A DNA stretch of 64,000 nt from Phoronis australis (lineage: Eukaryota; Animalia; Phoronida). Both the position numbers and the translations under genes were made by a program. A model generated the notes under the pieces. It was not told the origin of the DNA, made no database searches, and saw only the letters and a program-made list of their open reading frames with translations. Where the stretch lies: assembly GCA_002633005.1 (NCBI GenBank), contig NMRA01000343.1, positions 393,671 through 457,670 on the forward strand, written 5' to 3'. Positions 4,487 through 60,414 of this stretch are shown here, in pieces (the first letter of the stretch is position 1; the number at the start of each line of letters is the position of its first letter).

Positions 4487-4877
4487 GAGGCGAATACCGT
4501 TTCAATATGACTGATTTAAAACAATTTAAACATACTGTGTATCTCAGTTTTCACGAAATGCTCACCCTCACAGTCACGTTTACATCTGCTGGACGAGTCT
4601 GACACACATGGTCTTTGGGTAACCACTCAGAAAGAAGTAGAGAGGCGACAGGTTTAGTGATCGAGGAGGCCGTCCACACTGCTATTGAACTGCTGTTGCT
4701 CAGCGAGAGTACGTTGTTCTGGTGCACCATCCTAGATACACTAAACACGGAACGACGCCGATGCGTTGATCAGAATTGGAGAATTGTTGGGTTTATACAT
4801 TACTGGATGTAATTTACTTTCGCTCTTTAGATTTAGTGCACAGAAAAGTCCGCACAGAAGTTGATTTGTTATTTCAG

Positions 4878-5039
4878 ACAATCCCGGCCAGCCGTTTGTC
4901 ATTGAATGGATCATGAAGCCGTTGTTTTTGGGAAGGTTTACCAAAGACATGGGGGAAATGGAAGACTTTCTACAGGAGCGTGAGGGTGTAAATGTCACGG
5001 TAGTGAAACCAGCGCAGCTCACAAACGACGTCGATCCAG
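4878..5039 (+). CDS. BLVRB: BLVRB-like internal exon
   Basis: tttcag|AC...CCA G|gtttg, phase 1-1, in frame with neighbours; DNPGQPFVIEWIMKPLFLGRFTKDMGEMEDFLQEREGVNVTVVKPAQLTND (DM..ME and T.V.P..L motifs). Confidence 0.85.
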
Positions 5040-6971
5040 GTTTGTCCTGTTATTTTCTAGGGATGAGTCCGTACACGAAACTTAATAAACTGAACCGGTG
5101 TGGCAGTATTTTACTTACGATAAAGCGGACGAAAAACGAGTACAATACGATATGTTTCACCAAACTGTCATGTGCAATCACAGTGACTCCCTTGATTCGA
5201 TGCCATGGTCTATTTCAGCAGGTGTTCGTTGCTATGAATTTTTGATTTAAAATGACATGTCGAAACAGCATAAAATTAGATAACAGAGACTGGTAAAACA
5301 CTTGAAAATCCAGTAAAATAAGGCATGCATATATTAAAGAAACTAGCTTTCGAGCCTTAATGGGTGCGGGTCTTAATCAGCCAATTAGTTTTATAGGCCT
5401 TTTAATTCAAACATAAATTTTCAACTATACAATACGATTTCTATTTGCGTACAAGTTTTAATCCCAAAGTTTGAGATCATTTAGTGCATTGATCTGGTCA
5501 TTTAGTGCATTTTCATCTGAGATTTAAACTCGCTTCATCATTCATCCTAAATTCCATTGCGTCGACAATTAAACGTCTGTGGTTCTCAGCACTACAATTC
5601 TTCTGCTGCAAGATGGACATGAAACGCTTATCGTTACGCACGTGGCTCCGTGTTTATCGGTCTCGTCCGGTTCTTCACGGAATCTCCATAAGCTGTATTT
5701 ATTAGCGTCTCTCATCAATAAAGTGTAGTGTATTATTTCAGTGGTCGACCCCAACTTGTCTATTGATGCTACTTAGTGAAAATCTCAAGTTGCCAATGGA
5801 AAATTGAGAAGGGTCAGAGGTCGCCGACTAGAAAAAGGAAAATAAAAACGTCGTGCTGCTGTCACCATTATTAAAAATTACGCATATCTGTTCCATTTTT
5901 CCGTAAATATTCACCACTCGCTGGGTACTGCAGCAAACATTACCCTTCACGCGACAAATTGCCGCGTCAGACGATCCAAAGCTGTCGTATATTCCATCAG
6001 CCAACAGCGTTGACTCTCCGATCACTTACACATATTTAAAAGACTTCATAATTTATTCATATGTATTTCCGAGTTGTATTTGAGTTTCCTAATCCTAACT
6101 CTATCTTACTGAATCCTTCTTACCTACGGAGAACGCAGAAAATTTGAAACACTGGAGAGCGTTTCATGGTCTGACCTTGCCCGATTTTTGCCGAACACTA
6201 CCGACTTCCGTTTGTTTACGCACTTCGCGTTGTATTCTGAGCGCGTGCTGATTTCACGACTCAAACAGAACAGTTGTGAACTTAAAAGGATACCAAACCC
6301 GTTTTTGACCCATTAACAGTTACTAAAACGGCTTTCCCCGGAAACGAAAAGATACTCTCTAACCCTCGACAACCCTAAAAATTTGAAAACTCTTTTCAAA
6401 GTCTGCTGAACGGGCAAGCGTGACCTACGCTTTTGCGAATTACACGGCAACTGTGGGAAAAGACCACTCACCAAGGACCGTAATGTCCAATTTGTGAAAT
6501 AGTGAGTATGAGTCTTTAGTTGATTCCTGCTTTTATTTTTCAAGATTGACACCAATGATGCATTAACAGGTAACAGAAGGAGGCTTGATTGACATCAAAA
6601 CAGAGTTTAGTAACCTTTTAAGTTACTGAATTTAGGAAAAACATTAATTTAAAGTTTCAAAGTCACCATTAATTTACAAACAAGTTTTGGGTGAATTTGT
6701 CTGACATTGTTACTCGCTGTAGGGACTACTTCGTGGCGACTTGAGATTTTCTTAGGTTGTCAAACACATTGGCGAGCTCATTGCAGGTCGTCATATCGAG
6801 TGATGACTACCATTGCCGTAATGACACCAAATACCATCCTTATGTCTGTTATACTTGTTATATTCATACGCATCCATGTACGTGACGCATCACACTACCA
6901 CTGCCACTACCTTTACAACTATACACTCGTTATCACTGCATAATATGCTATCACTGTCATCATCACGATCA

Positions 6972-10456: not shown

Positions 10457-13400
10457 CTGAAAATAGATTTGGGCTTATGAAATTGACGACCCGGCAATGT
10501 AGGGCACCCCATTGGGTGCCCTGAAATTGTCTTCTTTGAAACGTTTCAATCTACTGAACAAGCTCGAACTTTAAATGATCTACTTGGAAATTGAAAATGT
10601 TTAAAAACCATGCACGCTTTATTGAAATCCCAATAAAATATTAATTGATGAAATCTCTAGAGGCCACTTTGCCTAAGTAACTTCTAAAATAAACTGTAGA
10701 TATTAGCCTTATTAAAGAAAGTTGAATGTTGTAGAAATCTGAACTCAAACTATTATTGACGTTTCAATTCTCATCAAATCTGTAAAGTCAATACTTCAAC
10801 AGAGGGTGACTTGAAAACTGAAGGCACAAAATAAGCCACTGTTATTGCTTTGCACTACTTTGGCGGAAGCGTTCACTTCTACGAGGCCTGTTCACAAAAT
10901 TCTAAAAAATCACAAAATTGTAGAAAGTCTGTCTTTGTTTGACTGCGTGTTTATGAGGGCACATTTCTCCTACCGGAAACCCTCTTCATCGGGATTTATT
11001 TTCTATATCGGATTTTATAACCGAGCATGTGTACATGTTGAAAAGCTATCTCGTGCATATTATTTTGCCTACAGTCCGAACTCTGGATACTTGCGAATGT
11101 TCGGAACAAACGTGCAAACTAGGTTTGGTTCTACAAGAAACTGGTTTATGATGAGGTATAGAGAACTGGGTGACATCGACGAAAGTAAGGTGCGGGGGTA
11201 CTGCGTGCAGAGTACGTTGGATCCCGAGTATTAGAGTAGGGTAGATACTGGTTTGACAGATGGTGGTGATGTCAAAATTGATTGAGATCAAAGGACGACC
11301 AGCGAGATTGAACAGCACGTGCACTAGTTAAAGATTGAACAAAACGCTTATTTGGTTCTTATTTGCGCCAGACTCATTTTTGAAGCCGCTCACATCTTTT
11401 TTTATCAACAATAATATATTTTTTTTCACACTCTCACAAATACATTCAACATTCAAGTCATGTTACCTCAGCTAAGTCGCTACCTGAAATGACCATAAAT
11501 CAAGGGTGTGTAGGAAGATTTTCTGCCGGAACATTCGGGTTTATGAAAAGCTTATACAAACACGAATGGATAATTTCGAAAACTGTAACAGTGTTCTCGC
11601 AATTTCACTTTGAATATTTGTCAGTGACACATTTTGTTTTTCGATGAAAAAACACTGTACCTCGGATCAGTTTTGCTGGAAATTCTCTGCTCAAGTGACC
11701 CAATCATTGGCAGACTGGTATTAAGTCGTCAGTTAAATCTAACACATTTATTAATTAATTTAACTAGTATATGTTTGTAGATTGTTGGTGAAAAGTTCTA
11801 GAACACTGCATTAGTCGATAAATACACATTCAAGCACGGGTTTGGATTAGTAAGAAAAAGCATTAAAGCAGTTAAGCAGTTAAAGAGTTGCAGTGAAGAG
11901 AATCAGCAGTTACAACGAGAGCCAATGAAGAGCCAGCTATAAAGACAGCAGGTTATTTGAATCAGCGAGTGTATCAGTTGCTGGATGTCTCAGAAGTTCA
12001 TCACAAGTCAAGGCTTCGCAGCACTGGCTGGAGGTAATCGGCTCGGTTTTTGAAAAATAGGAAATGACAACTTCGTCAATTATTTTCGTGCGAAATAAGC
12101 GAGAAATTACCGTACACTGAGCAGTAGGAAATCGAGTTTTCTGAGGGAACTGGTTAGTACATGCTGTTTGTCGTTTGTAAGGCGTTACAGATTAAAGAGG
12201 CATGGAACGCGAAAGCTCGCCAAAATGTCTTTTAAACAATTCCTTACCAAAGTACCATTTTGCAACGTGTAGTACAGAATAATTCACTTTCCCCAGGGAG
12301 GAAATTTCCAGGAAAAATCGCAAAATTTACGATTTTGGAAATATGCGCGAAGGAAAAACTCTGTGGTTACCTCAGTGTTTCTAATTTCCCTCCCACTTAT
12401 GATAAATGCGCGCATGTACTCACAGTCAGTTGCTTGAAGTCGCCTTCCAGGCCTCTTTAAGGTCAGATATCGACCAATGACATAGGTCAACAACACAAGT
12501 TCAGGGGGGGGGGGGCATTCACGACTTCCAATGGGCACAACATTCTCACGAAAACATAAAATCACCTAACTATCGCAAGTCGGCCATTTTGGTAGTTGCA
12601 TAAAAGGAAAACACATGAATAAACTGCAGAGTTTCAACTTTGTTTCCGCTTGTATAATTAAGTGCACTTGATTCACTCTGGCTGTTCATTCGTGTCAACT
12701 AGCTAAGACACCTGATTGGATCTCGAAGACGACTTCCGGTTTTTAAACCAATCAGATGTCTTGACCGGTTGATAACGAAGTAAATTAAGTGCAGCCACTG
12801 CCTACATATGAAACGCAGGGCAAGTAAATTAAAGCTGTTGACTTGCTCCTTACACTAGTAAGAAACGATTGCTAGTGGACTTCAGAAAACTGATCAGCCG
12901 GGTAAAAAGGCAACTGGTTCAGCATCAGTCTCCAGCAGTTAGGACCTTTCTGTTCTTTTCAGAGACCACTTACAATCTAAGCAAGGAACAAGTAGTGACA
13001 GCTTTAATAATTCACGGAAAGATGCAGCAATCAAAACTTACTCTTTTAGAAGAAAGTGGGTTTGCGGCTCAAGTCTAAATGCACCCTCTTGTATCGTGTA
13101 ATGTTTTTGCATCACCAACGACTTTCCATGGAATTGTGAATTTAGTCAAAATACTTCCTTCTATAGAATCAGAAAGTGGTGGCGTCATGCCGTAAAGCAC
13201 AGCAAGTGTCGAAAACGTAGAAAATCAGCACGTTCACACAAATATCATTGAGTCAATAGTTATTGTAGTTCAGTCGTTAGTCCACATGATTTTTTCGTAA
13301 TGTGGTGTCGAGGAGACAGAAACATTAATTTTTTGATTGACGAAATGATAGCGAGTGGTTCAGTGACCACCGTTTCTAGCTGGCCTTTTGTTCAATTAGA

Positions 13401-16400
13401 GACGGTGGTCACTGTCTAGTACAAGGCCAAACACCTATCAGATGACAATCTACTTAACGTTTGAGAGAAGTTCTTATTCGGACTATACAACTGTCGAAGA
13501 ATTTAAGTTACAAAACGTTACATTTCAGTCTCGTCACCTCCAAATGAGGCATGCAACACAGAGCAAGTATCATACCGATTCAACACTTTATCCTGACAAG
13601 TACGACTGAAAATTCCGTTCAGGGCCCGGTCTCCAATTTTTTTACTCGAAATGGAACTCGAAATTAGCTTTGGCATTTTCTACTTTACTTTTGGGCGAAC
13701 TCAAGATAAGTGTCTATTATTCTATGCTCGAGTACATAATAACTTACGTAGTTAATTTATTGCCCTTAGTTCACAGCTTGTAAACCCAATATTAAAGCAA
13801 TAAGTTCGAGTTTGAACTCGAAATTTCGAGTTTTTACTCGAGTTTGTAGCACGAATATAAGGGTCTTCAAGGGCAAACTTGAGCTAGAAACTCCTATGCA
13901 TAAACTATAATGTATTCGAGCACAGTCTGATAACCAATTATCTTAAGTTCGCACAAAAGGAGCAGAGAAATTGCCAAAACTAGTTTCGAGTTCGTTTCGA
14001 GTACAAAGATTAGAGACCGGGCCCTGTACACTTATCCAGTCAACAGTTGCACCCGAGTTAAACCAACACTCACAATAAGCTCATTGCCTACTTTACTTTG
14101 CATCAAGCAGACCTCTTCTACTAAGTGCGCAGTACACCACTATACATGTACATGTACACTGTACATCCTCAGGCATGCAACGACATGCAGCGGTAAATTC
14201 GATGGAAACGAAAAGCAAAACCGGACGTGAACAGTGAAGACAAGTAAATATAGGAATTCAAGATAAGTTTTGATTCCTTGCTAATCCATTACGAATGACG
14301 TCAGTTGTGCTTCCGAAATGGCACGACCGTTATATTAAAAGGAATAGTTTTGTGAACGGCATTGAAAAATGAACGATTCGAAGTTACTTGATGTACCATA
14401 CTGAGCTACTCGGTGCTTAGCTTATCCGTTGAAGTAAATGGACACGGTACTCCACGGTGTGAGTTTGAGTGATCTTCCCAAAATCACCATTCAAGGCTAG
14501 CTTGATTAACGGCTTCTGGAATGTAATTTATCTAAAATTTACGGAACAGATTTGGAGTAAATTAATCACAGACATGCCAAATCTACATCTGAGACAAAGC
14601 AGAAGAAAATATCCAAATAATAGATGAAGCATACATCAGCCATTAGTAAGCCTATAATACAAATAACATAGGCGTATACACATACATCAACGAAATGCTC
14701 TAACCACATTAGGTACCACCAAACGCCTCACATGCTTTGACAGGGGCAAAAAAAAACTGTGGGTATCCAAAAGTTAGTGTCCGGCCTCGAGCATCCGGGC
14801 GTTCACTGAATTACTGACCCGTACAGTACGTTGGTCTTCGAATACCTGTACGTTGAACACTGGACCTCGGCGATTTTCTCTAGTTGTTCCACAATACTAA
14901 CCTCTTCTCAAGACGCAAAATATTGAAGCCTGTAGAAGCTCTACTGTACCTGTGTACGGTACGACATTCAAACGATCATTATAACGGAAAGACGTGAAAA
15001 AACAGAGGAAAAGAAAAAAAGGAGAATGAATTAAAAGAAAAATATCCAGACGTACAATTCATATGAGTTTAGCTTTGCATGCTTTGTGGTGCATTAGCAA
15101 CAACTATTCGTACTAAACTACTGTTTGGTGTTCTATTCTTGGGCATATCCGGGACTTGTGGTGTCAACAACGGCGATTCGGCATAAGTTCCTACCCCTGG
15201 GTTCCCTTCTTCAGCCCCGCCGCGGACTGACAATCTCGAGTTCGCTTTTAACGCTGACTTGAAACTCGTCTGAAAATGAAAAATATTGGTTAAAGGTCGT
15301 CATTTGATTTACCAAATCGTTTTTTGTTTTGTTGCACACTTCTACTGAAGTGGAGGGAGTTTAAGTGGGGTCGCGTTACGATTCGCGTAAATGATGAAAT
15401 CATGGATTTCTAGATGCTACTTACTACAGTTTTTTGAATGACACAGATCACGACAAAGTGTTGTTCCTCTCCCGAGTAGTTATGTAGCTGTTTTAAATTA
15501 GAGACGTTGCTTATAGGACGACGGCGGCATAGCGCCAGAATTGACCTAACAGGGAACCAGTGGCGTGTGCAAAGGTGGAGTATTGTTGACTGGAACGTTT
15601 ATGGCATGAAGTGGAAGCGAATGATTAGCGGGATACCGGAGGTTACAGGTTGGCGACCACGGTGAGAGATAGCCGGTGAGAAAGCGATGGTTCACGGTTT
15701 ACGGTGACACACATGGTATCCATAGCGGAAGGATCCATCGCTACGGAACAGGTTTGCCGTTCAAGAAAACATCGATCAACTTCAAGTTGTCTCATAAGAA
15801 GTAATGGTATACCTTCTTCTTTCTCGAAGCCAGTTTGGATTTGTACACAATTTCGACGACAGACATCACCATCGACAAACCAAGACCTCCGACCAGAATA
15901 TAAAAGACACCCGAAACATTACTGAGTGTGAGAGGACTCATGGAGGACTCCTGGAATACACGATATGGACAGCCAGGTAAAGACACCATCTAGTGGTTAG
16001 ACATTTTAAATGATAGTTAAGACCAGAAACCCGCATGCAACAGACATCCCCAGTCATGGTTAATCAGTACAAAGTTCTAGGATCGGAATAAAAAGGCGTA
16101 TTATGATTTCCTCGAGTAGTAATATCTTGACATTTTACAAACTTGAAAACCGCCTACTTTAGGTCAAAAGTCTCATTAATATTACAAAGAAGAATCTGGC
16201 AAACCTTTTTATCGCCATCTGGTGGTCCACACTCGCCCTTATCGTACCACCATCTCGTTTTAAACTTTCTCAACGTTCCATCTTCTTTCATCCGAAGAAT
16301 TGCCAGTGTTATGGCATTTCTGTTCAATAAATTGAAGCGTTTCGTTATCAGTAAAGACATACTGAGAAGACATGACCACCAAGACATGGTTGGTGTATCA

Positions 16401-19400
16401 TTTCCTCTTCAAAAACCCTTTTACCATGGCCAAATCTATGATGTTAGTTTGAAGGTCATTTGGGCTCATTTTCATGTAGTCCGTAAATTAATAGAGGTCG
16501 GACAATGAGATCTGTGGAGTATTCGTCTTGATTCGAAAACAGCGTTTCGTTTATATACGTTTACTTAAATATTGGACTTTCAAAGCATAAAACTTTCGGA
16601 CTACGCTAGAATGTTAATGGCTTAGATAGAATTGTGGATGCCTATGGCGGAAGATAACGGTGCTACTAAACCCCCCCTGATACCACTGATATCATGCTGT
16701 TTTCCAATAATTTCCACTTTTGTGTAATCCCCGCTCACCACACCGATGCCTCTCTGTGCTTTCCGTGCCACCACCAGTCGTGTCAGTTGTGGGTCACCCC
16801 GCGTCCCCGTAGGTGCCGCTCACCTGTTGGAGTGCCGCCAAGGAACTACATGTATATCACTGTGTATTGTCCAACAATCGGTGTACAGCACTGCATGACT
16901 ATTAGACGTTTTGTTTGTCAGAAAAATCATTATAGCGCGTCCCTTCTCTTATCTAGTCATGTAGTACACCATTAATTTGAACACTAAGCAAGTCTTACGC
17001 TAACGAGATTTGCACGAAAGTAGGCGAAAAAGCGTGCACCGTTTACCCCAGAGTATCCAGCGAAGTCCTCGGCCCACTCATGGGCTTGGCTGAACGTGCT
17101 GGTAGAGATAATTGCAGTCGTAAACCAAAACGCCTGTTTAGCGTACGAGTTTCAGTCAAGAAGCGAACAATGAGTAAGGCAAAAGACTGCTTTTGAAATT
17201 GAAAAGTAAATATGAGCCGTCTTTGAATTTTTAAAATTGAGGCATTTTAAGATAAATTAGCGATTAAGTACTAGATTTTCTTCAGTTTTGCGGCTAAGCA
17301 ACGATCAATAATTAGTATATCGATTATGACAGCCTGGCTCAGGCTCGGGGTAAAAAAAACCCCAAATGTCTCATGAATAGTTGCGTTTTCAACAAATTTA
17401 CCCACCTGTATGCATTATGAGCACTACACGCGACTCCGAATCCTTTGGAGTCGAGGTTGTTGCCTACTTTCATCGTATTGCAAGGCAGTTTTTGGTTATG
17501 ATAGTCGTTCGTAGGCTCGTCAAGTAGAAAGGCATACTTCCCCTTCGATTCTCTAACTCGCTGTACACCTTCCTCTATACTGTCCACGAAAACGTCATTA
17601 GAGGCCTTCATTTGCTCGCTCATTTTCTTGAACACAGTTACCTTAGATGTCTAGAACGATGCATATTAAGTCAAATCAAATGAACAAACGCCAAGGGTAA
17701 TGTAATCAATATGCGTTTACGTTAACGCATCGCAAATAGTATTATACAAGATTACATAACGTTTCCATGCAATACTCGCCAAATTTTTGGGCTTTGTGAA
17801 TTGTCAGAAATTTGGTCATCGTTAATCACGAAATTTGGTTGAGTGCTTTCGAGCATCCCAAATGAAATTGCTAAGAATGGAAATGTTACTAAAAGAGATG
17901 ACGCTGATCGTGAAACAATATCGAGTAGGCTTGACATTTCATGAAGATCAATGTTTTGGCGGATTAAAATATGGACTCCAAATAGCTAGATACTAGGTTT
18001 TGTTTTGGTAGAAAGTGAGACGGTTGTGAAAATTACAGCGAAAGAACTGCCAGTCAGTTATTGTTGAGACGAGGCTCTACAAGGAATATCGAACTGTCAT
18101 CTCTTTGCAAGCACAGGAATGACTTCTCAACCGTGAATACGTTGCGACCAATTTCGCAGTGTTAAGGGGTGTAAACCAAATGTTCGCTTCCTAGATGGAA
18201 TACGCTTTAGGTGAGCAATAGAAAGCGCAAGGGCTTCACATTCGTTCGAAAACTAGCAAGGTACCATCAAAATCTTGTGGTGTAAAATAATAAAAGAGCC
18301 ACTAGGTGGCACTGAGTTAGTCTAAGTCGTCTGCAAAATAATTAGGATTTTTTTCAAATTTCTGAAAAAGAATTAAGTTCTAAACATAAACATTTAATTC
18401 ACATATCAACAGTCGGTCTATAGTGCTTAGTGATATAAATACTTCGTCTCTGAAGAAAATACAAAGAGAATGTCACGTTTTAACAGCAATTGAAATACTC
18501 GAGACAGCGGAAACTATGATTTCACATCATCCGGTAGCAATGGTTGTAGTCACGTGACCTCAAACAAGCGTGTGCTGTACAAAATTACAGTAATCGATTA
18601 AACGAAAATTATGAAACGTACAATCATGCAAAAATTTACATTCACGAATAAAACAAAGACTCTGCCATCGTTTTAAGTATCTACGTGGGCATTAAATACT
18701 ATTCTTACCTTTAAAGAACCACGGTGTGTTTAGATGAAAGATTTGTAAAATAATTTGAACGCAAGCCAGTTTAGCCAAAACTAGACTTAGCAGCTCTTTT
18801 AACAAACTCATCATCAATTTCTTCAATCTAAAAATTGAGATAAAATTTCCAGTCGTGATTGTTGAATATGTAACAATGTACAGCAAAATTACCTTCAAAA
18901 CACACCTTTTCGACCAAAAGAAAAGCAAATGCTTACAAGACTGTAATGTAGAAAATAGTCCCGTTCACTGATACCATTCCACTGATTTAGTAGCGAAAAC
19001 AGTAAAGTGTATTTTGACTTTTTAAGCCTTGCACATTGTAGTGCAGTTATAACAGAACCACTGGTTTTTCGATGACTTAAACTACTGAAACAAGAAGATA
19101 AAACATTGATATAATGACACCCTGAACAGTTCAGAATCTACGGTATACTCTCTTGTAAATAAAACTTACATCAAAGAATTTTCTCGTAGCACCGGTACGA
19201 AGAATACCGTATGATATTTCGCTATGGCGTGACAGCTCATCAGCTGACTCAACGGGTAAGATTAATTTTTCTATCGTAAGAAACGCCGCTAGGTTTGCGG
19301 TGTACGAGGCGATTATGATAAGGGAACAAATCCACCAGACTCCTGCCGCGCTTCGCCCAGAGATGGAGCTGTGGAAATATATCATAAACTGCACTTGATT

Positions 19401-22400
19401 CACTCGCTCGACTTACGCCAGCTCATCCGGGTTAACCGGCTGAGACACCTAATTGGTTTGTGCGCCGGAAATCAATCGTCGCCGAGAACCAATCAAATGC
19501 TCCGGATGGCTAACCCGCCTCCCGTTCAGTAACGCTAGGACCTCGCTTAAAAGCAAGACTTCGCGAGACTACGTGAGATATTGCCGTGTATTTTAAATGA
19601 AAACACGTGACTATGACTAGGTTTTTGCTAGGTTCTAGCGTAGGTCGTAGCGTCTACTGAACGCACGCCCGGCATGCGTCAGTTGACTGAATAAAGTGCA
19701 GCCAAGAATGAACAGTGATAATATAATTAAGACACAAAAGCCTGCCTGTGAAAGCGACATCCACCAAGTATGTTTAATTGAAAGGCTTTTCGTATGATAT
19801 CCGTGTGACATTTATCATTGAGTGTTCCGTGAGAAAGTTTGAATCGTTTTAAACAAAATAATATGTTTCATTTTTCCAGCTTACATAGTGTAGCCTGCAT
19901 TCACACTGATGTTATCAGAAGACCTTTCTCAACCCTCTGTACACAGACTTCCTAAAGTGCATTTTCACACACAATGACATGCAGCTAATTCATGACAGTG
20001 TACGCTGAAATGCCATGCATTCGTGCAGCAAACCATTCCAGATGCGTTTACCATTCGCAGTTACCAAAAATATGAAAGGTGTCGAGATTGCATGAACATT
20101 AATCGCAAGCGTAATCGATAAGATTGTCATCGAAAGCGAAATTTTCAAGTCCACACCATTTTGAAAATCGAGACCTGCACCTTCAGGCAACAACACCTCC
20201 GCCTAGTGCCGGATTAAGTTTTCTCTGTCTTCAAAGCCTTGGAGTGGAGGGGGCGGGGGGGGGAGCACACACATTGTGCCCTCGTCCTGGCAGTCACCGT
20301 ATGTCGATTTTGATCCTTCTCGTCTCTTAAGGTTATGAGCCGGGGTCCTGTTTTAGTGTTGGACCCTAACCTGTCTTTCTCCCTGTTTAGCTGACTAAAA
20401 AACGAAATCGACTTAGGTTCAGGTTTTACTCTTATAAAATCAATCTCAAAAATTCCTTCGGACTTGTTTTCTCAGTTACCAAAAAGAACGTACGGTGTTC
20501 GACAGGTCTAGAACGCAAGGTGTCGATCTTACTGGTTGGCCAACCACAAAATTCGAAAATACGCGGGCCGTAGGGAATTGCATTCAGAAATAAAATTACC
20601 GTTGTTTTCACCTTTGTTACCCCTTCTTAGGTAACAAGTCGTTACATTTAATACTGTTCTCTATGACTAGAGTAAATTTGTAACATATCGCGCAAGTACA
20701 TAAACAATAGGTTGGGATCCGCCACATGAACAGTCTGGGCGAAGTTTTTTAAAATCTGCCGAAAAAAAGCGGCATGTAGTCCTATTCGAAGGGAATGGAA
20801 TAAATTCGATCTCGGTCGATAAGAGGAATGTCCTGTGGGATCTTATTTCATCTACGCCACTCTCAGTACGTTTTCTGCATTTACTTACAAGTTCCTCATC
20901 ATCAATGGAGACCAATTGGCGGTGACGTAAATACGTGTACGTAATGATGTTTGTAAATACGAATGCACTTCGGTTGACAACTCCAAATATCTTTAAAGTG
21001 GCAGCTGAACAGGGTGAAATGCAATCCGGCACTGGCTTTGGCACACCACGAACCAAATCGCTTCTTGCCTCGAGGCTTGGTGAATTCAATGAGAATTGTG
21101 TGAACATCGACAAAGAATAAAACTGAACATTTCTAAGAAATGGTGCGGACATGCGTATTCAAGCCCTCCTGCACTTACATCGAAGAATTCTCTTGTGGTA
21201 CCACTTTTAACGGTCCCATACTTAATGGTGGAGTGGGTTTTCACCAAGTCATCAGGTGATTGGATTGGGACTATCATTTTCTCAATGGTCAAAAAAGCAG
21301 CCAGGTTGGCCGTGTAGGATGATATAATGATTAGGGTGAACAGCCACCAAGCGCTTGCGACTATACGACCAGATGACGCACTACGGAAATGAAAATTAAG
21401 ACGAGTTCAGTAAAGCGAGGGTGAAACAGTGAAAAAGCTTTTACGTGGTTTTCCACACAATGTGCCTATTTGTGCAATTAACAAACCCAAATTCAAACTA
21501 CTGCCTTTGGAGTTTCATACCTGGGCTGAGTTTCGTAGACGCAAAATTGCCACCAGGATGATCACTTGCTTCGCTTGAAAATGGCGCCATGTCGCGCACT
21601 GTTGCGTGATTTTGAGTTTTCGTGAGGTTCTCGCGTCTACGGAACGCACGCTTGCTCGATTGCATAAAAATACGGAGTTTTTATGTGACTCATTGTCATG
21701 TGATTACATTGGTTGCAATACTATTAACGAAACTAATACTTGCAGGAAGTGAAAACCACGTGAAAGGTTTTGTGCTTAGACATAGGCGTAGGAAACGGGG
21801 ACAGGGAGAGTGAAAACACCACTTTTAGGCTACACTAGCAAAAACGTTTGACTTGGAACTCATCAGACACTCATAAATACAACTTGGCACTTCGCAACGT
21901 GTTGCTGACGGACATTAAAATTCATTCCGGTATAAGTACATAAACGTAATGCGCAAAATTACGAATAAATAAAAGAAACTTATAATATTTCCCGGCGCTA
22001 GCTGAGAACTCGCCTAGCACATAACTCCAGTCACCAAATGGCAAGACCATCTCGTCCACCGAGTCAACTTGGACTTCCAAACATGTGGAAATCGACGATA
22101 TTTCGTGAGTCCGCTCAAAAATAGTTCGACAAAGCGAAAATTTACGAGAAAAGGAAGCAGAAGAATTATAGTCCGGTTATCAAAAAGTGGACTGATGACT
22201 TGGCATGACAAGACCGTGCCATGCATTTTTCGTCTAAAAATATCGCATACGGAATTAATCTGATCGTTGCTAAGTAATATTATACACGCTACTGATGACT
22301 TCCAAGTAAACGGAGAAAGGACTCCCGTACGAGGAGCCTAGTGGAAATGCAACGTTGACAGAATATTTCATGGGGTTTACCAGAAAATTTGATTCGTAAT

Positions 22401-25400
22401 GTTGCGCATGGAATCCCTTATCTGGCATTAGTCGGATTTCTGATTGGAATACCATAATAGCTAAATGTCAAAAATACCCTTTAAGGGTTTTGATAAAGCG
22501 GTGCAGCTTAAAGATACCACTGTAGTGACTAAATTCGTCAGATAGTCGACAAGGAGTCATCCCAGAAACAAGTGTGATTCAAAAGTTTTGGTTGATAAAG
22601 GAGACACCAATATTGGGTAGCAGGTATCGGACAAGGGAAAGAAGATATGATTAAATCTCCCCCTATTCGAGCATGTAATATTAAGTACAATAGTTTTGGA
22701 CGCTAATAAAATTGATTAGTTACGCAGCAGTGGCCACCTATGTTTGAAAATCTACCAATACATTAGCTTCCATAATAGAAACGGACATGCACGCTGTTCA
22801 AATTCCCCAAAGTTCCTCCAAAGACTTGGTTTGGTAACCAGAAAAGAATATTTTAAAGAAGTCAAATCTGCCGTTACTTAAAGTACCCCAGTACCGAGAG
22901 CCAATAATGTACTTGGGAGAGAGGCGCACGCCATGTCCGGTTAGTGGCATGGCACTTGAAATTTAAATAAACATTATGAAACCACTGTTTTCTTTCTTGT
23001 TTTTCATTTTTGATATGTCTGCCAGTTTTCAAGCAATTACTGCTACAAGTATAATCTGATTAAGAGGCGGACGTCGAATAACTAGTCAACTAAAAATACC
23101 AGGATAAATGAAATTTTGTTTTTTAGACATGTGATTATGTCCCCAATCCATACAGGCGCCAATGAATGACTTCTTGTCAAATACGTGACGTCACTTCACT
23201 CTCCCCGCAATCAGCAAATGCTTCCTAATCCTATGTTAGAGGTTTCCAGAAACACTACAAAGCGAGGACATTTTGCATACGACAAGAACACGTCAAAATA
23301 TTTAGCCTAAAACTAGTCCAAGTAGCGTTATGTGGACCACGTTTCTTGGGAGAAAACCAAGAACTCTTAAAACCTTGCAAAATCAGTGTAAAGCAGGTGT
23401 TTTGTAAGTATGGTCAAGACTTTACTAGCCACCACATAAGTGATTGGGCGGTAAGGTTAGAATGTTGAATTTTGAGATTTAATTCACTGTCTCTGTTCCA
23501 TAATTGTACAAGATTTTTCGTCGCAAATGTAAACTAATGTCTAATAATTTGGGTCCACGTAACGCAGTTATGGGCTGCGTTTCCAAGACACTTGCTTACG
23601 AAACGGAAACAGTGAATAATTCTATCCCATAATTCAACATTTTAACATCACCGACCAATCACACTAGTGGGAGCCATTTTTTCAGGGTACCCTAGTAAGG
23701 TCTTGAGCATACTCGTGATACAACCAGGTGACTTTGCGTGGTCTTGCGGATACGGAACGCATCCCTCATAAGTACATCGTAGTTTCTAAAAAATAGAGAT
23801 CCTCGACTTTTCTCCTTTTTGATCTCAATGAATTTGAACTTATTAAAGCAACAAGGATGTAAAGGAACTTGTACGGTAATTCTTCTATTAATTCACACAC
23901 ACGCTAACCATACGCTGTTCTCGAAAGAGATAGGGATAACATTCCTGTAGGTTGGCCTTGTCGGAAACGTTCATGTCCAAAAGGTCTTACAAATGCAGGG
24001 TATTCCATCGAAATTGGGATCCCGGTGTCGAATAACAGACTCCCGCACCTTTAAAACAGCTGTATCCCGAAAAACACGAACCCCCTACCTTTTAAAACAC
24101 AAACCCCGACCTTTAAAACAGTTACACGGGGTATCGGACAGGAAAGCTGGACATTTTTCAACTTTTCTGAGACGATGTCGGTAGCCTTAAACTTTGAGTT
24201 AAAGGATCTTCAAATACTTTCCAGTTCTTTTCTGCATTTGTTTGTTAAAATTGACAATAATAAAACGTAACTTATATTATATTGACCTTCATCTGATTTT
24301 TATGGTAAAAGTCGTACAACTTCTTTCTGGACGAACTCCAACATAATCCATATTCTCAACACGTTCTTATCTCGGTGAACATTTAGTTCATTTCAGATCA
24401 TTGAATAGTTTCTCCAAAATATTTTCAAAAATGAATAACAAATATATTATTTCGAATTTCGAGTGCCATCTTTAATTAATTCCTTTAAATATCTTTACAA
24501 CTAGCTGCACTTTAGGTTAGTCGATTCACTTGTCAAGAGTACATCAAGTTCCGGCACAATTTCCTGATTTTGAAATGCCCTACGAGAATTATTAGCTCAA
24601 AAGACCTGAACCGTCACAATTTCACCTTTCTTGCTCTCTAAAAGTGCACTTCAACTTGTCATCGATCATGAAAACGGAATTTGGAATCAGAATTTTTGAA
24701 CTCAGCGCATTCCCTTTGACTGCATTTCTATGGAACACCTTGAAATGGTGTTCTAAAATTTTACACAGCACGTGTCTAAAAAACAATAAATTGACTACAC
24801 TTGTTTTTTTACATAGGGAATGCCAGTTGAGACAGATCAACCAACAAAGACACCAGTTTATTAATTTCCGATGTGAGCATGAGATCAACATCGAGGGAAA
24901 GGCAAATAGTTACGGGTTGGCCGGGGGACACGGCATACGCCGGGAGAATGAATCAAGTGCAGTGCTTTCGTACACATAATAGGAAAATCACTGCGTTCAT
25001 CAAAGAACATTTGTGACTGCACTTAAAAAATCAAAAGGTCGTACCTGGGAGCGATGTCTGCGCCTTGTTGCATGAAGCATCCTAGACTAAACCATAGACT
25101 GTTGTACAAAGTGAAGTCGTCGCTCTCTTCATATGGACTGAACTTACAGGTAACGAACAATACGAGGCTTACACAAATGTAGGCACCCACGATACAAAGC
25201 CAGACGGTATGGTGCAGAGGATCCATGAAAGAGAATACGCCTGGTTTTTGTTTTTGCGGTTTCATTATCATGATGCTGATACCCAATGTCATGAATGGTT
25301 TCGAGAAGTCGACCACTCTTTCCCTTGGCGAGATTATAGTTAAGTCGCCAACGGCCAAGTGCGCCCTCTGAAACAGCGACAGTGACGAAAGAGTATTATT

Positions 25401-28400
25401 CCATCAGTCAATTAATCAGCATATATGTTGCTTCAGGGAGTTTTCAAGCTGTTATCATACTGGCGATAATATACTAACTGGATGTGCAGGCTTATAGGCT
25501 AAGAAGAAATGGGCCCACCTGCGCTCCTTGTTTTCTATCACTATGATATCGCACGTTAGAATTGACTTGTCAGTAAATTCGAAGACGGCCTCCAATTTGA
25601 AGATAAACTAAAAGATTCCATGTACCTCTTAATAGAACAACATTTATATGAATTATGTTTAGAAACAACGTGTCGTTTGCACCTAAACTATTCCTATGAT
25701 AAAGAATCACTTTACGCATCGACATAGATAAAAATAAATGAAATGGCTATGCCCATGTATGGCAATTCGATTACACCGGTATTGCACGTGCGTTAAATCC
25801 GCTATCGATCAAACCATCACATATTGCATGGAAATAAAATTCTCTGTGATATTCGGACCCACCATACGAAACGTGAACTGCACCAATTCAAAACCCTAGG
25901 CCCGAGATACCTTTCTAGTAGTGGTAGCATAATTATGAAGAATTTAATCTCTTGATGAAACAGGGTTTCTATCATTAGTATTTGTAATGACTACTTACAG
26001 TCATCACAATGAATTGACGTTTAAAAGCCATTTATATGCATATTTAAGTTACGACCTCGTAATTTTTCAAAGAAATAGTTTCCTTTGTTCGTTATACATA
26101 TAAAGTAGGGTTATTCATCAAGACATTCTGAATGCTGTAGTGTGATTCTAAATGACTCTTAACTTCTTTTGATTCAACGCGATATGTTCTCTATTATAAT
26201 TACCCCGTTTGCAACTTCCCCAATCATTCCGTCCCAACTTCGGTTGGTGGGGTCAAAGTCCCCATGTCGCTTGTCAGGTGCCGGCTTCAAGGTGTACTGA
26301 AAGTTGGCGGACGAAGCAATCTCTTCCAACAGGTCTTTACAGTATCCTTCATATAGGTCATTTCCAGTGGGCGGTTTGCCACTGTCCAGAGGCCTTGTTC
26401 TTACTAGCCAATATGGCGGATTCTACAACCGTAAGCGCCACTTTCCGTAAATACATACACGATACTCGCGATGCGCTTTGCTTACAGAATGGAAGCATTC
26501 CAGCCTCATCGATCAAGAGACAATGGCCGCCATGTTTTGTAGTGTAGACTGAGGCTGAGCTTACTCACGAAACATTCGTCTTTCACTCGTGTGATTTTGC
26601 GTGGTCTTAGTGTTTGACCTCTCCAAACTCGCGTGCGTCTTCCATTAACAGAGTGCATCGAACAATAATGCAGTGTCATGTTTTCTCCAGAAAAATGACA
26701 TTCTTAAAAAAGATAAAGCGAACTTAGTGTGATAACATCGACTCACACAACAATTACTCCTGTTGGCCTAGGTCTGTGGAGAATTTGATGAATAAAAGGA
26801 TTTCCGTGAGCGTTTACTTGGAGGTAGTCAACCGTTCAAAGCAAGCGGCTATAGACACTGTTCTGGTGTTGAAAACGTCAACATTTTCTCAGGCATATAT
26901 ACTCTTCTCAAGTTATTTTGACTGAAGTGTCAGGATTGTTACTAGATAGTTTACTTCCTAATCTAATCCTACCAAATATGTTTCAGGAAGATCTTGAAAA
27001 GAGCCCAACATTAAACGTTAAAAGCCATTTGAACTTACCACCAACATGCTAACGATCTGTATTTTCGACTTCACAGACTTCTGATCGCCAGTATCAGTTT
27101 CGCGTTTGCTCAAACCATCGGTGTCCGACCAACTGTTAGTCTTCGCAAATAAACAAAATTTTAATTGACAGAAACGAACAAGTCAGGCAAACAAGTCACA
27201 GTTTGACGGACAACACTTATGAAGAGCTGGTGATTATTTCTGTAAGTCGATGAGAAACATCAAAAACATTTGAAACACAACCGATGGAATAAGTCATTAT
27301 CCACCGCATAACAATCACTACTGTTTCATGAAACTTTTTCTGTCTTAACTTGGACCAAAATCGGGCTAATTTAAGACCAGAATCTCTTAGCCCTGTTTCA
27401 TTTCTTAAAACAAAAATTAATACCGAAATCGGTCTAAGCTAAGACCGAAAGTTATCCTGCAACGGCCGGAGTAGCCTTAAGATTGGACTTTAGTCCACAT
27501 GATCAACATTCACAATTGCCATGACTAAAAACTGTTGAGAAACAAATTTCGATATGTTTTTCACAATCTGATTTCCCCAAACAATGTCAAATTGAAGATT
27601 GTCCGCTTTCGAATCGAAAATTGGCACATGCCTTTGAGACAATGAAATGCTGGGACATGAAAAATCATGTTTTCGTGCCATACCGAGGTCTTCTCAAGCG
27701 AGATTCCTATTGTATCCAAGATGTACGTAAACCTCCATTTAGAGTTTCAATATCAGAATTATTCTTGAAACCATGTGTCGCACATCGCCTCTCTGAGAAT
27801 TGCGAATTTGCAACAAGTGGCAGAAACGAAGTTTGCTCACCTAGGTAAAAAAACCGACTTAACCTCTGTCTACGGATCGAGGACAAAAATCCGATTTGTG
27901 TTCACCACGAAACGGATATCTTTTTTACTTTTCGTCTTCAGTCTTAACTTAGCCCGAATTTCGGTCTTAACCAAGTTATTTTTGGTCTTAAGTCTTACGC
28001 TGTAAGTCTCAACAGTTTTCATAAAACGGGCTGGTGACATTTCTGTGGCGCTTGCATGAATCACATGCCCATCAAAAGTGGATTTTTGTACTTTTCCGAT
28101 TAGAATTGATGCTGCTAACATCGGATTATTTAGTTAATGGCAGAAACCCACACACTGAATAAGCATTGACAAATGCACACGTTGGTTAGTGTGTGCAATT
28201 GTAACGAGTAAAATATTTGGATGGCATATCCTTATATAGTGCCAGACATCACACCCTTGTCAGTCAACCTGCTTGGATTACAGTTTTTTTAAAGAACAAC
28301 ATTATTTTTTCGTCAATATCAGATCAGTACCTCATCACTTGCACAAGCCCTACAAGAGTTTAGGTCAGAAGATTCGAAGAACAAGACATGGGTGGAACGT

Positions 28401-31400
28401 AATAAGTCGAACGTGGTCCCTATAGACCGAACGTGTGACTGGTTAAGGTGTGAAATCAGAATTAACACAGCAATGTATCGATGACGCAGCCATAATCGCT
28501 GAGGTATTTGCCTCAACTCATAATTGCGTTCATTTCCTTCCATAAACAAATTAAGCGAAAACCCTTGCATATTTTCAGAGGGGAGAAATGGAAAAACCAT
28601 GGGTGATCATATTCTGAAATTCATGATAATTACGTTTTTCGAGATATTTTTAATGCTCTCGTGCCACAAAAGAATTTAAATGTCACTTTTCATATGTATA
28701 TTCGTGAGTCCAGTTAAGTGTACCATACCTGTGCATTGAAACTAGAGTGTTATCACTTCAGTAACGACCTATGTAAACAACATTGTCTTCCGATTTTGTA
28801 GCAGGTCTGGAAATTTTGAAATGTTACCGCTACTTCCGATTTCGTAAAAATCGGCTGACTGCACTTGAGTCAGGACGCAGATTGGTAGAACTAACCGCGC
28901 GTTATCACCCGATGTGAGACCAAAGCATCTTGTTGAATGAAAAAAGTCAATTCTTTGATAACTGCGAAAGCGCACCTGTCAATTATGAAATCTTATTGTT
29001 ATATAACTTATGCTTACTATTTCCGCTTCCCTGTCCATGGAAACCTCTACTACTTGAAGCGAGTAATTAACGCGACGTCCATCCGGGCCTATTTTCACAT
29101 TTCCGGTCATGCCTGGGAATGGTTTCACCTGAAAACGAGGCAAACAAATCAATCACGTAGAAGGGGTGTGCAAGTAAAAGAGTGACAAATGTGCTACTCC
29201 GTTGTCAAATAAATCGATGCTGAATAAATTTGGACATAAAATGCCTGGTTGTTCTAGTAATACGACCCAGGGCGCATGTTCGACCGATTCCGACGTAACC
29301 GGCGCACTTTACACTCCAGGAAATCCAAAAGTAAAGACTGGGATACTTTCGAAAACGTTTTTACAGTTGGTAAAGAAATCGTAAAATATTTCGGTATGCG
29401 TGACTGATTCATTGGTAGCAAACGCAACGGGCGCCAAAACAACTGACCTGAGAAGTGACTGTCAAGAGTGACTGAATGAGGCCTTGTTCTTTAGTCACGC
29501 GTATTGAAACCAATACGCAAATGGGCTATGGTAGGAATTTTGGACTGTAAGAATATCGGCATACATTTGCGGGTGGGCTGCGGCCTACTGTGAGGGTTGA
29601 GGGATTGCGCACTCTTTGTTTTAGCCTCCAACCTGATCAAAGAATTTCGAAGCAATGTCAACTGCTCCAGTTTCTTTGAATCCCAAAACTCAATCTCTAG
29701 GAACTTTTCAAAGATTAATTGTCCACCTCCACACAGAATCTGTTTTTAAACACATTGCAGGAAAAAAGCTTACATTTTTGATTGCATCCATGATGTCGTC
29801 GCCATGTTGGAAGGGTTGCTCATGGCCACGTTGGCAACTGAGTCCCTTGTAGTGATTCTTTTTGTTGTTATATCCCAGTTCTTTAAACACATCAGGCTTA
29901 TGCTCTTTCAGATATGTCATTGCTTTCACCAAAAGGTCTACTGCGTCTACCACCATGGCAGATTCATGCTGGAAACAATAAACAACGAAACCGGTGACAA
30001 AACAGCGTCACTTCCTAGCGTTTGAGTGACGTCGGCCATTCTTGATATTGCACAGGATAGCACCGTTTTTTTAATTATCGTTCAAGACATTTCCAAGTTC
30101 GCTACCTACTTTCAAACCGTAAATGCCATGTAAAATAGTAAAACACACGTACGTTCGTCAGTTTTTAGAATAGACCAAATAAGGAAATATGACATCAAAC
30201 TGTAGGGAACCTATCGTCTATTTAGAAGAGATCTACGGGCTGGGGGAAGGAATAAATGGCAACTCTTAGGTCCCTACGTTTATGCACTGCCAAGGAGTCT
30301 GCAAGCGTGTGAAATGATTCCGTGTATGGACACTAGAGGGAGATACCGCTTCACTAGTCTGTGTGTTCTGCCGGGTTTAAGAAGAAGAACCATTCCAGGG
30401 GTCATTTTAGAAAAACGTGGGTATGGGTGAATATGACCCCACGTCCTAGAGTTTAAGGGCTAATTTGCAGGACCTAAGGCCACGTTATTTTTTTCGATTT
30501 TTGCTTCCGATTTTAATGGGCCCATTGCTCGAATTAAAGGCGAAGGCAACCCTTGTTCATGTCACTTTTAGCGAAAATAAGGTTCGTTGATTACCCCAGC
30601 TGTCGAGTCAGTCATTGTTCTACCTCTGTTGTGATAAGTTCGGTCGTCGTTTGCTTTTGTTTACAAGTCAGTCAACATGCCACGCTGTTGCTGTGTGCCG
30701 GGATGTACTCATTATCGTCTCACACACGCTTTGGGTACCTTGCGTCGCTTTCCGAAGGATGACACACTTCGCCGTACTTGGCTAGCTCGTTCATTTGAAG
30801 AACGCAGCGCTACCCGTCCACGCAACGTACAAAGCAGTGGAGGGTTACCGAGTGTGTGGCAAGCATTTACTGCAGTCAGATTATGACAGAGATATGTACG
30901 CTGAATTGATGAAGGTCCCCGCGAAACAACGCCTGAAGAAGGGTACCATACCGTCGCTGATTCCCGGCAGTGCCCCGTCGCTAACCCCGAGCAGTGCGTT
31001 TTTGAAGCGAGAAGCCTCGCGAGCTGTGGCCATTATATACAGTGACTGAAGGCACTTCTTGTACTGTCACCCATGCCTCCGAACGTACCCCATTGAGTGC
31101 AATTCCGGAAACTAGCAGTGATTCGCCCTGTGTTGTTGTCTCTAGTTCCGGCAGAGCCTGTAAGCAGCCCTGCAGCGATGTTGAGTAGTGGGAGTGACTA
31201 CATGCCCAGTTCGACACCCAGTGAAGAGGACAGTTCGTCATCCAATGAACATATCGGTGAGCCTAAGTTTGATAAGTTTATTGTGGACTTGTATTGGAGC
31301 AATTTGGAAGGTGTCAGGTGTGTGACGAGGGAGTCACACGGCGGGACTTAAGCAGTTTGGGTGCTCAGATCACCCTCCAGTAGGAGTGTCGCGGGACACT

Positions 31401-34400
31401 CGGGCAAGTGGGACAGTTATTTCTCTGTACGTGAGATAATAATGAGTACACCCCAGTACGCAGCAACAGCGTGGCATGTTGACTGACTCGTAAGCAAAAA
31501 CAAACAACGACCGAACTTATCACAACCGAGGCAAAACAATGACTGACTCGACTGCTCTCACAGTCAGACTATATGAAAAGAAATTGGCGCGAAATTCTAG
31601 CCTCCCAAAACGTCACATCCGAGTACACGACGAGTAATTAATTAAATTACTAAAAGCAGTAAATAAGTGAAAAATATGTCTGGGATAGTCAGCGAACCTT
31701 ATTTTTGCTAAAAAATGACATGAAAAAAGGTTGCCTTCGCCTTTAAGCAGTCAGATTGCGTCAATGAAATTCTTTTTGCGCCAGTAACACGGGATGGACT
31801 CTTAAAATGATAACATTTTAGTTCTTTTTGAAATCAATCATTAATACTGCAGACTTATTTAGGAATTCTTGAGTACAGACGTCTCGTACTATTTACAGTG
31901 TATACAAACACGACTGAAGAGGGCACTAGTCTATAATTCTAAAAAACTAACAAATAAAGACAAAAATAGACTTCACCCATTAGACAACTGCGTTCTACGA
32001 TCATGCAAAGTTAACTACGTTGCTTATAATTATGCGGGTATGTATCCGATATAATGCGATTTTCCAAAAACGAATTTTGTTCACGTGCTGTAAGCGCCTG
32101 TTTCACTTAAAGGCACAGGTGATTATCCACTGCATTGCTTAAACTGAACGTTTTCACTGTGTGTCATTTGTCCGTTCCTAAATAGATGATTTTGAATCCA
32201 ATGCATACAAACATGCCGAGATTCGTCGACAAGCTCTTTCCAAATTTGCTAACACTTGGTTTTTACGCAAGTGTTTCGCGACATCTGGATATAGGCGCAA
32301 TTTAACAAGTAGTCGCATTAACCTGCATACTCGCATATGCGGCACATGTAAAACTATTTCGAAGTAACAACTTTGAGCAAACACGTGCTATGCTATTGTG
32401 TTCAAATTTTGTCGTTTTTTCAGAAGGAGGAATACCGATGTGATCGTCTCGAGATCTACGGCTACAGCAGAATAAGTTAGTTTTGTGCGGTAACTCAAAA
32501 TTCAAGACACTGCAAACACTCATGCGAACGGAGTATTGGTCCACGAGACGGCAGAATTAGTAAGCATAGACCAATCATCATCGACATCACGTTTAAAGCG
32601 GCGATGAACTCGCGTTTCACAAAAGAAACTAACTATAAAACGTTTTAATTTTTTTCTTAACTCGGACGTGAAGTGTTTTTGGGGTCTTGGGAGAAACAGT
32701 TCGTTATTAGATGAGACTTTGCTACTGACCCGCCGTGACGTGTCAACTGGTTAAAAAGCAATGACGAACTGCTATTTCACTCCTAGCTGAGAATCATCAC
32801 CCGACTAATTTGGCTTGAGACCAATTCCATTACAATAAATTGTCTCACTCAAAAATTAGTTCTTGTGCATGAAGGCTGCGAGTTCGTTGCGGCTTTAACA
32901 AGCAAGGACATCAGACTAAAAAACAATATTTTCCATGAACATGCAGAGTCAAAACCAATGTAGAGCTACGTTAAAATGTCGGTTCCAGGCAAATTTCATT
33001 AAACCCATTATGGGAAATTGAGATTTACTATTTTGATTCCGTGTGATTCGTACGCTCAAGCACGCGCCTCACAAAGTACATAGACATATGCCTACAACAT
33101 GAGCGATTTTTCGTAACCGTGTTCCGGCAATGGTGACAGATACAAGATACATGTACGTCAGTGTGCCCATTCAGAAGATACAAAATATCTGGAATCAAAA
33201 TGGCGAATCTCAATCACTATCGTATGTAATGAATTTTGTCTGAATGACACAGTGCTTCCCATTTACACATAGAAATTCCGGCAAAATACTATTAAGCAAA
33301 ATTTTGTTTTTGTACAAGTTGCTTCTACAGAGCCGTTAACGAAAGAAATTGCACATAATATACATGGAATACTCCCGTGTTAGGTTAGACCGTCTAGATG
33401 AGCTCAATAAAAAGATGTGACAAGCAGGAGGTCAAATGCTGCAACTACAAAAGTTAGATTTGACACAAGTTATATTATATGTTCACCGGTTTGTCTGACG
33501 CACGTCAATGTTGACTGATCGAGACTGCAAGAAATGATTCCCAAGAAGCAATTTTCATGTTGGCTTACTACGATTTGCCATTTAACCTTCGATCTGGTTT
33601 TGTTGAAGTGGACAAAAACATGTATTTTATGCAGTCATCGGAGTGCTTTCTTGCGATCATCAGTCAACATGGAGTGGGCACTTTGGCTGGGGAAAATGTC
33701 GGAAATTCGGTGCACCAGGGGCTTACCGGAACACTGACCTGAAGAGGGGTTAACCCCTTTCCTTTGAAACGCCGGTCGACGCTATCCCATTTACGTACAA
33801 AGTTTTGGAAAACAAAGCTTTGAAGCTTCAAGGCACTGAAACCTGTGATCCGTGCTCCACCAAACCGGAAACTATCCACGGACACTTCCCAAATATCCTG
33901 AAAATAACAAATCAAACCTAAATAGCAAAACGGCATCATCCATTCCCCTTACGGTGGAACAATCGTACAACGTAGAATCAAGCGACGAAAATTGTACGCG
34001 GTTCACGATACCGTTCAGTGGTGCTGATTGGATCAAGGACGTGACCGTTATCGTCAGTTTTTGGAGAGGTTAGTCTTAAAACCTATTTCGGAAAACTTCT
34101 TCACATGTACGTCACCAAATTCAACGTATTGAAAATCTCAAAATATCTATTTCAACATTCTAAATAGTTTACATATTTTATAAATCAACATACAAGGGTG
34201 AAGGTCATCTTCAAGAAGTATCGATAATTAGGCGCTAGTCTCAGTTTAAATGGCAAATGCGCACGGGCAGGTTGCATCATTTAGTCTACGGTTTCATAGA
34301 CATTATTGTCATGCTGTTGTCCGGTTGGGCCTATAGCGAAACACTGATAAATGTCCAAATTTGGTGAACTTCGGGATAATGTTTGTCAAAAATGACACTG

Positions 34401-51500: not shown

Positions 51501-51699
51501 AAATACAGTCTATGGCTTGATAGTCAGTTTGAAGACTGCACTCAGAGTTCGCAATTAGATGTGTCAACATACGAGAAAAAATGACTGCATCTTCAAACCC
51601 TGCCCTTGAAACCTCCGGCCAAGTTTCGGTTTGAGCGTCTAGCCCCACCGAGCTGTAGTTGAACAGTAATAGAAAGCATTCGATCGAATCCCTCATAAT

Positions 51700-60350: not shown

Positions 60351-60414
60351 CTGAAACGTGCGTGAAAGTAGAGTAAATCTAGAACCAACATGTATAGTAA
60401 GGCTAGGAACCAAT

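Follow-up and report, generated by a model that had tools for sequence, protein, structure and literature searches.

Two old copies of the M3/S2-start exon in an AMPA-type receptor gene of Phoronis australis, very probably used one at a time

Gene structure and receptor identity

The stretch of DNA analysed here is a window of 64,000 nucleotides (nt) from Phoronis australis (assembly GCA_002633005.1, contig NMRA01000343.1, positions 393,671-457,670, forward strand). It contains a single ionotropic glutamate receptor (iGluR) gene, located on the minus strand from ~40.2 kilobases (kb) down to ~15.1 kb, with exons for the amino-terminal domain (ATD), S1, M1-M4 and S2. The exon that encodes M3 and the start of S2 is present in two tandem copies, termed 12a and 12b, which are very probably functional either/or exons. 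Exon numbers follow what we take to be the vertebrate convention. No N gap lies inside the gene, whose exons are as follows.

~40051-40209, 37763-38090, 35843-36040, 33739-33897, 29774-29968 and 29018-29128, minus strand: ATD exons (approximate bounds; gene 5' end not fixed)
26204-26422, minus strand: exon 10, S1
25045-25367, minus strand: exon 11, end of S1, M1 and M2 (single copy; Q at the Q/R site; phase 2 donor)
21179-21380, minus strand: exon 12a, M3, M3-S2 linker and S2 start, spanning helices E to F (202 nt; nearer the family consensus than 12b)
19170-19368, minus strand: exon 12b, second copy of the M3/S2-start exon (199 nt; more derived)
17406-17650, minus strand: exon 13, main S2 exon (single copy)
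16205-16319, minus strand: exon 14, site of the vertebrate flip/flop cassette (115 nt; single)
15813-15950, minus strand: exon 15, M4
15072-15270, minus strand: probable last coding exon, C-terminus (approximate bounds; stranded RNA depth in bin 14800-15310)

The architecture ATD-S1-M1-M2-M3-S2-M4 is that of AMPA-type receptors. All 60 PDB matches shown for each of exons 12a, 12b and 13 are GluA chains, the closest solved relatives being GluA1-4 and not GluK or GluN. In a quick tree of 42 rows, built with no deliberate kainate outgroup, the gene formed a long branch (0.89) that was unplaced among bilaterian AMPA-type sequences. Its exon phases are shared more widely: 13 of the 13 inspected animal M3 exon loci from metagenome contigs start in phase 2 and end in phase 0, as in the Phoronis gene, and the exon bounds are therefore common to other animals.

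Within the glutamate-binding set (P478, T480, R485, S654, T655 and E705 in GluA2 numbering, which for 478-485 and 705 was set by alignment; roles as described in PMC5766834), T480, R485 and T655 are retained, and position 654 is T or A. The constitutive part of the ligand pocket, encoded by exons 13 and 11, is unusual in having LLDEPT where GluA has LLESTM (E705 replaced by D) and D at 478. Residues 660-661 of helix F are D and T, and the conserved W of helix G is replaced by S. The agonist range of the Phoronis subunit may depart from the glutamate-typical one, or a partner subunit may be needed. In five of six aligned homologues, the M1-M2 loop (exon 11) is longer by 11-17 residues than in the Phoronis protein.

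Two copies of the M3/S2-start exon

An original prediction, made from the window's letters, had described 12a and 12b as tandem, apparently mutually exclusive exons, and its structural claims were all reproduced. Both copies lie on the minus strand at the coordinates given above, with YAG acceptors (TAG and CAG), a common GAT|GTAAGT donor and an open frame, and their proteins are identical in 40 of 67 columns. In the 14-residue gate block, 10 of 14 codons differ and the amino acids are unchanged. Joining exons 11, 12a and 12b leads to a TGA within 12b, and joining exon 11 directly to exon 13 leads to a stop four codons into exon 13; 11-12a-13 and 11-12b-13 each remain open through exon 15 (M4). 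The copies are thus tandem homologous exons of similar length and equal phases, of which the frame tolerates only one. When 12 exons of the gene were searched back against the window by tblastn, the M3/S2-start exon was the only one to be found twice; the exon of 115 nt at the flip/flop position was single, as also predicted.

RNA evidence for exon choice

Exon use was analysed in three raw-read RNA runs (X1-X3) and one contig run (X4) with the same species label, about 19/100 of each run being read, and exon-exon joints were reported only at three or more reads. A first mapping covered 14800-30100 with all four runs at 92% likeness, and a second covered 18570-21559 with X2 and X3 at 98% likeness. 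The first was swamped by a repeat and reported no exon-exon joint, and the reads of X4 fell on repeats only. Expression of the gene is low, and exon reads are stranded like the gene.

In the second mapping, four reads of X3 leave 12b at 19170 and continue with letters 1-30 of exon 13; four leave it at 19371 and continue with the end of exon 11. The consensus strings at these junctions are the same as the window sequence letter for letter (30/30; agreement 1.0), and the three-letter offset (19371 rather than 19368) corresponds to a CAG common to the acceptor and the exon end. Depth of X3 on the two 12b bins is 4.19 and 3.80, and that on the adjoining bins is 0 and 0.08. Splicing from exon 11 to 12b and on to exon 13, skipping 12a, occurs in one run. 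The 807 bases of X3 on 12b are approximately explained by the eight listed reads, and there is therefore little room for reads that join 12a to 12b; no such joint is among those listed at three or more reads.

For 12a, the evidence lies in depth totals. In X3, the bin 21170-21269 holds 182 bases, i.e., 2 x 91, which fits two reads stopping at the 12a donor. In X2, the bin 21370-21469 holds 26 bases, i.e., 2 x 13, which fits two reads stopping at the 12a acceptor plus the shared AG; depth on 12b in this run is 0, exons 11 and 13 are covered, and all 25 of 25 reads are clipped by at least 20 letters. As these totals match the 12a edges in both runs, we infer that 11>12a>13 exists. Thus, among the junctions proposed in the original prediction, 25045>19368 and 19170>17650 were found (four reads each, X3), and no 12a junction reached three reads. 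Likewise, the proposed mutual exclusivity is upheld in that 12b is spliced, without 12a, to both flanks; exclusivity may be less than strict, joints below three reads being unlisted.

Age, origin and spread of the copies

The proposed old duplication with purifying selection on both copies is supported by the computed divergence. By the NG86 method, the proportion of synonymous differences (pS) between 12a and 12b is 0.82 and that of nonsynonymous differences (pN) is 0.26, with pN/pS of 0.32 (bootstrap 0.22-0.44), and 13 of 17 four-fold sites differ. As synonymous sites are saturated and pN is low, 12a and 12b cannot be alleles or the product of a recent duplication, and selection has maintained both. 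When 12a was mutated at random in simulation at 35% or 60% per base, the M3 motif survived in none of 5000 trials at either rate.

A single origin of both copies within the Phoronis gene is favoured, not proven, by comparison of homologous sequences. The two copies have eight residues in common that are rare among 110 homologous blocks, and a tree in which they are held together has a log-likelihood 18.5 higher (p-AU 0.83). 12a stands closer to the family consensus: of 261 homologues, 231 score better with 12a than with 12b.

The duplication looks lineage-restricted, as far as the available sequences tell. Among animal M3 loci on metagenome contigs, none of 80 (kept of at least 167 confirmed) has two M3 exons; both flanking exons are present in just 13 of the 80, and there are many near-copies among these loci. 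Proteins carrying the gate motif have it twice in none of the 277 fetched (of 403), and none of 19 isoform or near-copy pairs differs in the M3/S2-start exon. Protein searches yielded no close relative with exon 11 (the best being 65% over the full length, or 71% over 74% of it, among 120 listed of 3606 matches) or with 12b (the best of 64 being 67%). A profile search with 12a and 12b gave at best 62% to 12b among 120 listed of 855, and an ATD exon search gave 85 matches at only 22-40%.

Differences between the two predicted subunits

Residues were numbered by the mature GluA2 chain 4uqk_A, in which 595-659 align with residues 1-65 of 12b. In AMPA receptors, T617, A621 and T625 make up the gate, together with M629 of the A/C subunits (PMC13672095, PMC9068512). 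T617, A621, T625 and the whole S615-K628 block are the same in 12a and 12b, and each isoform would thus form a normal gate. The differences lie in the first half of M3, at residue 629 (M in 12a, L in 12b), in the M3-S2 linker and in helices E and F. The original prediction had envisaged a switch that swaps the pore-lining helix, the gating linker and part of the ligand pocket: exchange of the linker and of part of the pocket stands, whereas the gate motif itself is identical in both copies and the changes lie around the gate.

Several of the variable residues are rare in the family. S600, I607 and C608 of 12b are each absent from 80 distinct homologous blocks and A614 of 12b is found in 3 of 80; Q634 and P636 of 12a are found in 1 and 2 of 80, respectively, and a one-residue insertion in 12a is found in none of 110. 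In the ligand pocket, the copies differ at 650 (V or L), 654 (T or A) and 657 (E or K). The backbone of S654 binds the gamma-carboxylate of the ligand, and E657 belongs to a helix F path that accelerates binding (PMC5766834). Differences at 600-614 (M3 packing), M629, I633, A636, L650, S654 and E657 would tune opening, agonist efficacy and kinetics. The prediction from these comparisons is that 12a and 12b subunits would have the same gate, with differences in the regions packed against it and pulling on it.

A candidate RNA helix joining the exon 11 donor and the 12b acceptor

The introns around the two copies contain the following elements, in which S1 and S2 stretch denote RNA pairing sites and not receptor segments.

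24921-24963, minus strand: S1, candidate docking site, starting 82 nt below the exon 11 donor and complementary to D (predicted)
19388-19430, minus strand: D, candidate selector whose end is 20 nt above the 12b acceptor (predicted); it also looks like one terminus of a small inverted-repeat element
19670-19704, minus strand: S2 stretch, which could compete locally for D and resembles S1 at 78% over 32 nt; apparently the other terminus of that inverted-repeat element
19511-19672, no strand assigned: high-copy repeat, like a miniature inverted-repeat transposable element, nested between the S2 stretch and D; hundreds of diverged reads from other loci; an 85% copy lies at 42587-42737

A predicted intronic helix of 43 nt, S1:D (approximately -55 kcal/mol), would connect the neighbourhood of the exon 11 donor with that of the 12b acceptor. 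For D, taken as the 45 nt above the 12b acceptor, pairing energies are -55 kcal/mol with S1, -43 with the S2 stretch and, for any other partner across the minus strand, -35.8 at best. The S1:D score of 57 exceeds those of all 40 shuffles (42 at most) and ranks first among 65 donor/acceptor pairs in the gene, the runner-up scoring 27.5. The helix spans the 11>12b junction seen in reads, and the final 19 nt of the intron lie outside it. Of the six DNA mismatches in its 32-nt core, three become G-U pairs in sense RNA, for which the duplex is predicted at -55.3 kcal/mol versus -46.7 for antisense. As the local fold places D with the S2 stretch, the S1 and S2 pairings would compete. Strong intronic complementarity that loops out one exon, together with a competing partner, is the predicted arrangement of a docking/selector system.

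These elements suggest a mechanism of exon choice. S1:D pairing would loop out 5.5 kb containing 12a, bringing the exon 11 donor to the 12b acceptor. When D is occupied by the S2 stretch, the nearer 12a, which has the stronger pyrimidine tract (15 versus 12 of 20), would be used. The frame survives with one copy, whichever it is, and inclusion of both or of neither leads to an early stop; nonsense-mediated decay would probably remove such transcripts. The exclusion of 12b when 12a is chosen is tentatively put down to decay of transcripts that include both.

A partner of D above exon 13 (17675-17719, -31 kcal/mol) was within background and was left unused. Steric hindrance was likewise set aside as an exclusion mechanism: the intron between the copies is 1810 nt, too long for it, and there is an AG ~20 nt above the 12b acceptor. 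Local pairing with S1 and long-range pairing with the flank of the S2 stretch are both possible for 24999-25024 (minus strand), a short piece 21 nt below the exon 11 donor; its fold is not significant (z -1.1), and it could add to the competition. Above the 12a acceptor, a 21-nt inverted repeat (90%) lies at 21433-21453 and 21751-21771, with a spacing resembling that of the S2:D hairpin above 12b.

Weighing the explanations

Old and intact copies, single-exon use, subunits tuned in gating and choice by competing helices together form an explanation that is probable as a whole. Several observations weigh against it. Read numbers are tiny, the 12b junctions coming from one run and perhaps from two to four molecules; X1 has no reads on exons 11-13 in the first mapping. 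No 12a junction is found at three or more reads; 12a>13 is likely rather than seen, and 12a>12b joints below that number may occur. X3 contains stranded unspliced reads above the 12a acceptor (21380-21559), taken to be pre-mRNA or slow splicing of that intron. The unconstrained exon-only tree left 12a and 12b ungrouped, and the protein searches found no close relative against which conservation of the exon pair could be checked. As for S1:D, the helix was found after the fact; D and the S2 stretch look like the termini of a small inverted-repeat element, of which a ~70% relative lies at 12653-12797; a 15-nt core is present four times in the window at one mismatch or fewer; and the window contains 10 helices scoring at least 45, four of them with loops longer than 3 kb. 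No helix looping out 12b rises above background (38 versus a shuffle top of 38).

Control of exon choice by S1:D is slightly favoured on the pairing predictions. The strongest rival accepts the mutually exclusive exons and proposes that splicing factors and splice-site strength choose between them, with decay as a filter, S1:D being a harmless repeat leftover; this is possible and somewhat less probable. As the ends are repeat-like and the window contains other strong helices, S1:D may be a repeat by-product, and the want of a partner helix for skipping 12b points the same way. For vertebrate flip/flop, decay is the only mechanism described so far (PMC8257547). However, the arms of S1:D are placed exactly at the two splice sites that reads show to be joined, its score is twofold ahead of the other 64 donor/acceptor pairs, and the sense-strand G-U pairs and the stronger sense duplex also speak against this rival.

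A bolder extension of the competing-helix explanation is that one AMPA gene builds its own heterotetramer by splicing, with 12a and 12b subunits specialised for the unequal A/C and B/D positions and with transposon ends recruited as the docking/selector helix that forms the switch. The M3 ends and M3-S2 linkers differ in shape between these positions. We consider it unlikely; if it were true, exon duplication would be doing here what gene duplication repeatedly did in other bilaterians.

In a different explanation, 12b alone is now coding, and 12a is either recently silenced or a poison exon whose joint inclusion leads to decay and tunes receptor level. The directly listed junctions are those of 12b only, and in X3 the depth of 12a is lower than that of 12b and partly unspliced. 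This is nevertheless improbable, because 12a is the copy nearer the family (231/261 homologues) with splice sites and frame intact, and because X2 covers 12a together with exons 11 and 13 and has no reads on 12b. An assembly artefact that placed the exon of an allele or a paralogue in the intron is very improbable: the joining of 12a to the gene's exons comes from depth totals, but saturated synonymous divergence excludes an allele mix, the gene is gap-free with no other exon doubled, rare residues are common to both copies, and reads join 12b to exons 11 and 13, which flank 12a.

Comparison with known exon switches

The vertebrate flip/flop cassette is a pair of 115-nt exons at the end of S2 (PMC8257547), which, according to PMC13520880, arose in early vertebrates. 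Flip/flop of GRIA1-4 is a tandem, mutually exclusive pair, with a frameshift if both exons are included, that doubles the subunit repertoire (PMC8257547, PMC13520880), and the Phoronis pair very probably resembles it in these respects. Flip/flop involves 8-10 changes in 38 residues at the S2 end, whereas the Phoronis pair is a 199/202-nt M3/S2-start exon that differs in 27 of 67 columns and reaches the pore helix and helix F. No doubled 115-nt exon is found at the S2 end of the Phoronis gene, where exon 14 is single; M2 (with Q) is constitutive, and M3, the linker and the S2 start are doubled. The Phoronis cassette would act like flip/flop but is distinct from it.

In Drosophila srp, inclusion of exon 4.2 is directed by upstream pairing (PMC4691838); in models of such one-sided pairing, the other choice is thought to depend on splice-site strength (PMC6071210). 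The Phoronis arrangement resembles srp 4.1/4.2 and the Dscam docking/selector system in that complementarity links a site below the upstream constitutive exon to a site above the second of the alternative exons, with the first looped out (PMC4691838, PMC6071210). It differs from these systems in that its helix is predicted only, there is no downstream helix for the other choice, and competition would come from a local hairpin that probably derives from a transposon. Insect nAChR alpha6 and Drosophila Cav2 likewise swap homologous exons in a channel gene, in other channel families and segments (PMC1919356, PMC11828482).

The original prediction knew of no report of a duplicated M3 exon in an iGluR, and our literature search, which covered mostly titles and the starts of abstracts and few subscription papers, likewise found none. 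In the passages obtained from a survey of mutually exclusive exons in C. elegans (PMC4165533), the terms glr, nmr and glutamate were not found. The 2026 survey PMC13520880 describes recurrent AMPA gene duplication and heteromers and states that splicing in its invertebrates is still to be examined. Six short motifs of the Phoronis protein had no match in 12 of its 13 supplementary files, in which alignment gaps could mask a match.

AMPA receptor diversity outside vertebrates has been attributed to gene duplication. The Phoronis cassette would be a second, independent AMPA exon swap, affecting the part of the receptor through which ligand binding acts on the gate. It would also provide a natural pair of channels that are alike except in residues 595-660 and constant in the gate motif, offering a test of the roles of M3 packing, M629, the linker and helix F in gating. 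If the helix is functional, docking/selector splicing extends to an iGluR, and repeat ends are suggested as a source of such helices.

Other features of the window

An element with long inverted repeats and a THAP-domain remnant lies at 30569-31711, within an intron of the iGluR gene. Frames at 51673-52520 and 56844-57221 (both plus strand) resemble, by eye, decayed pieces of a retroelement without long terminal repeats, and Pfam gave no family for the two frames tested. At 3282-5242 (plus strand) there are exons of a gene for an NAD(P)H-binding protein (PF13460), with a similar stretch at ~1.9-2.1 kb and 3.6-3.8 kb. At 59549-63775 (minus strand), two near-identical sets of phospholipase-A2-like exons flank an 839-N gap and a reverse-transcriptase remnant, representing a tandem copy or an assembly duplicate.

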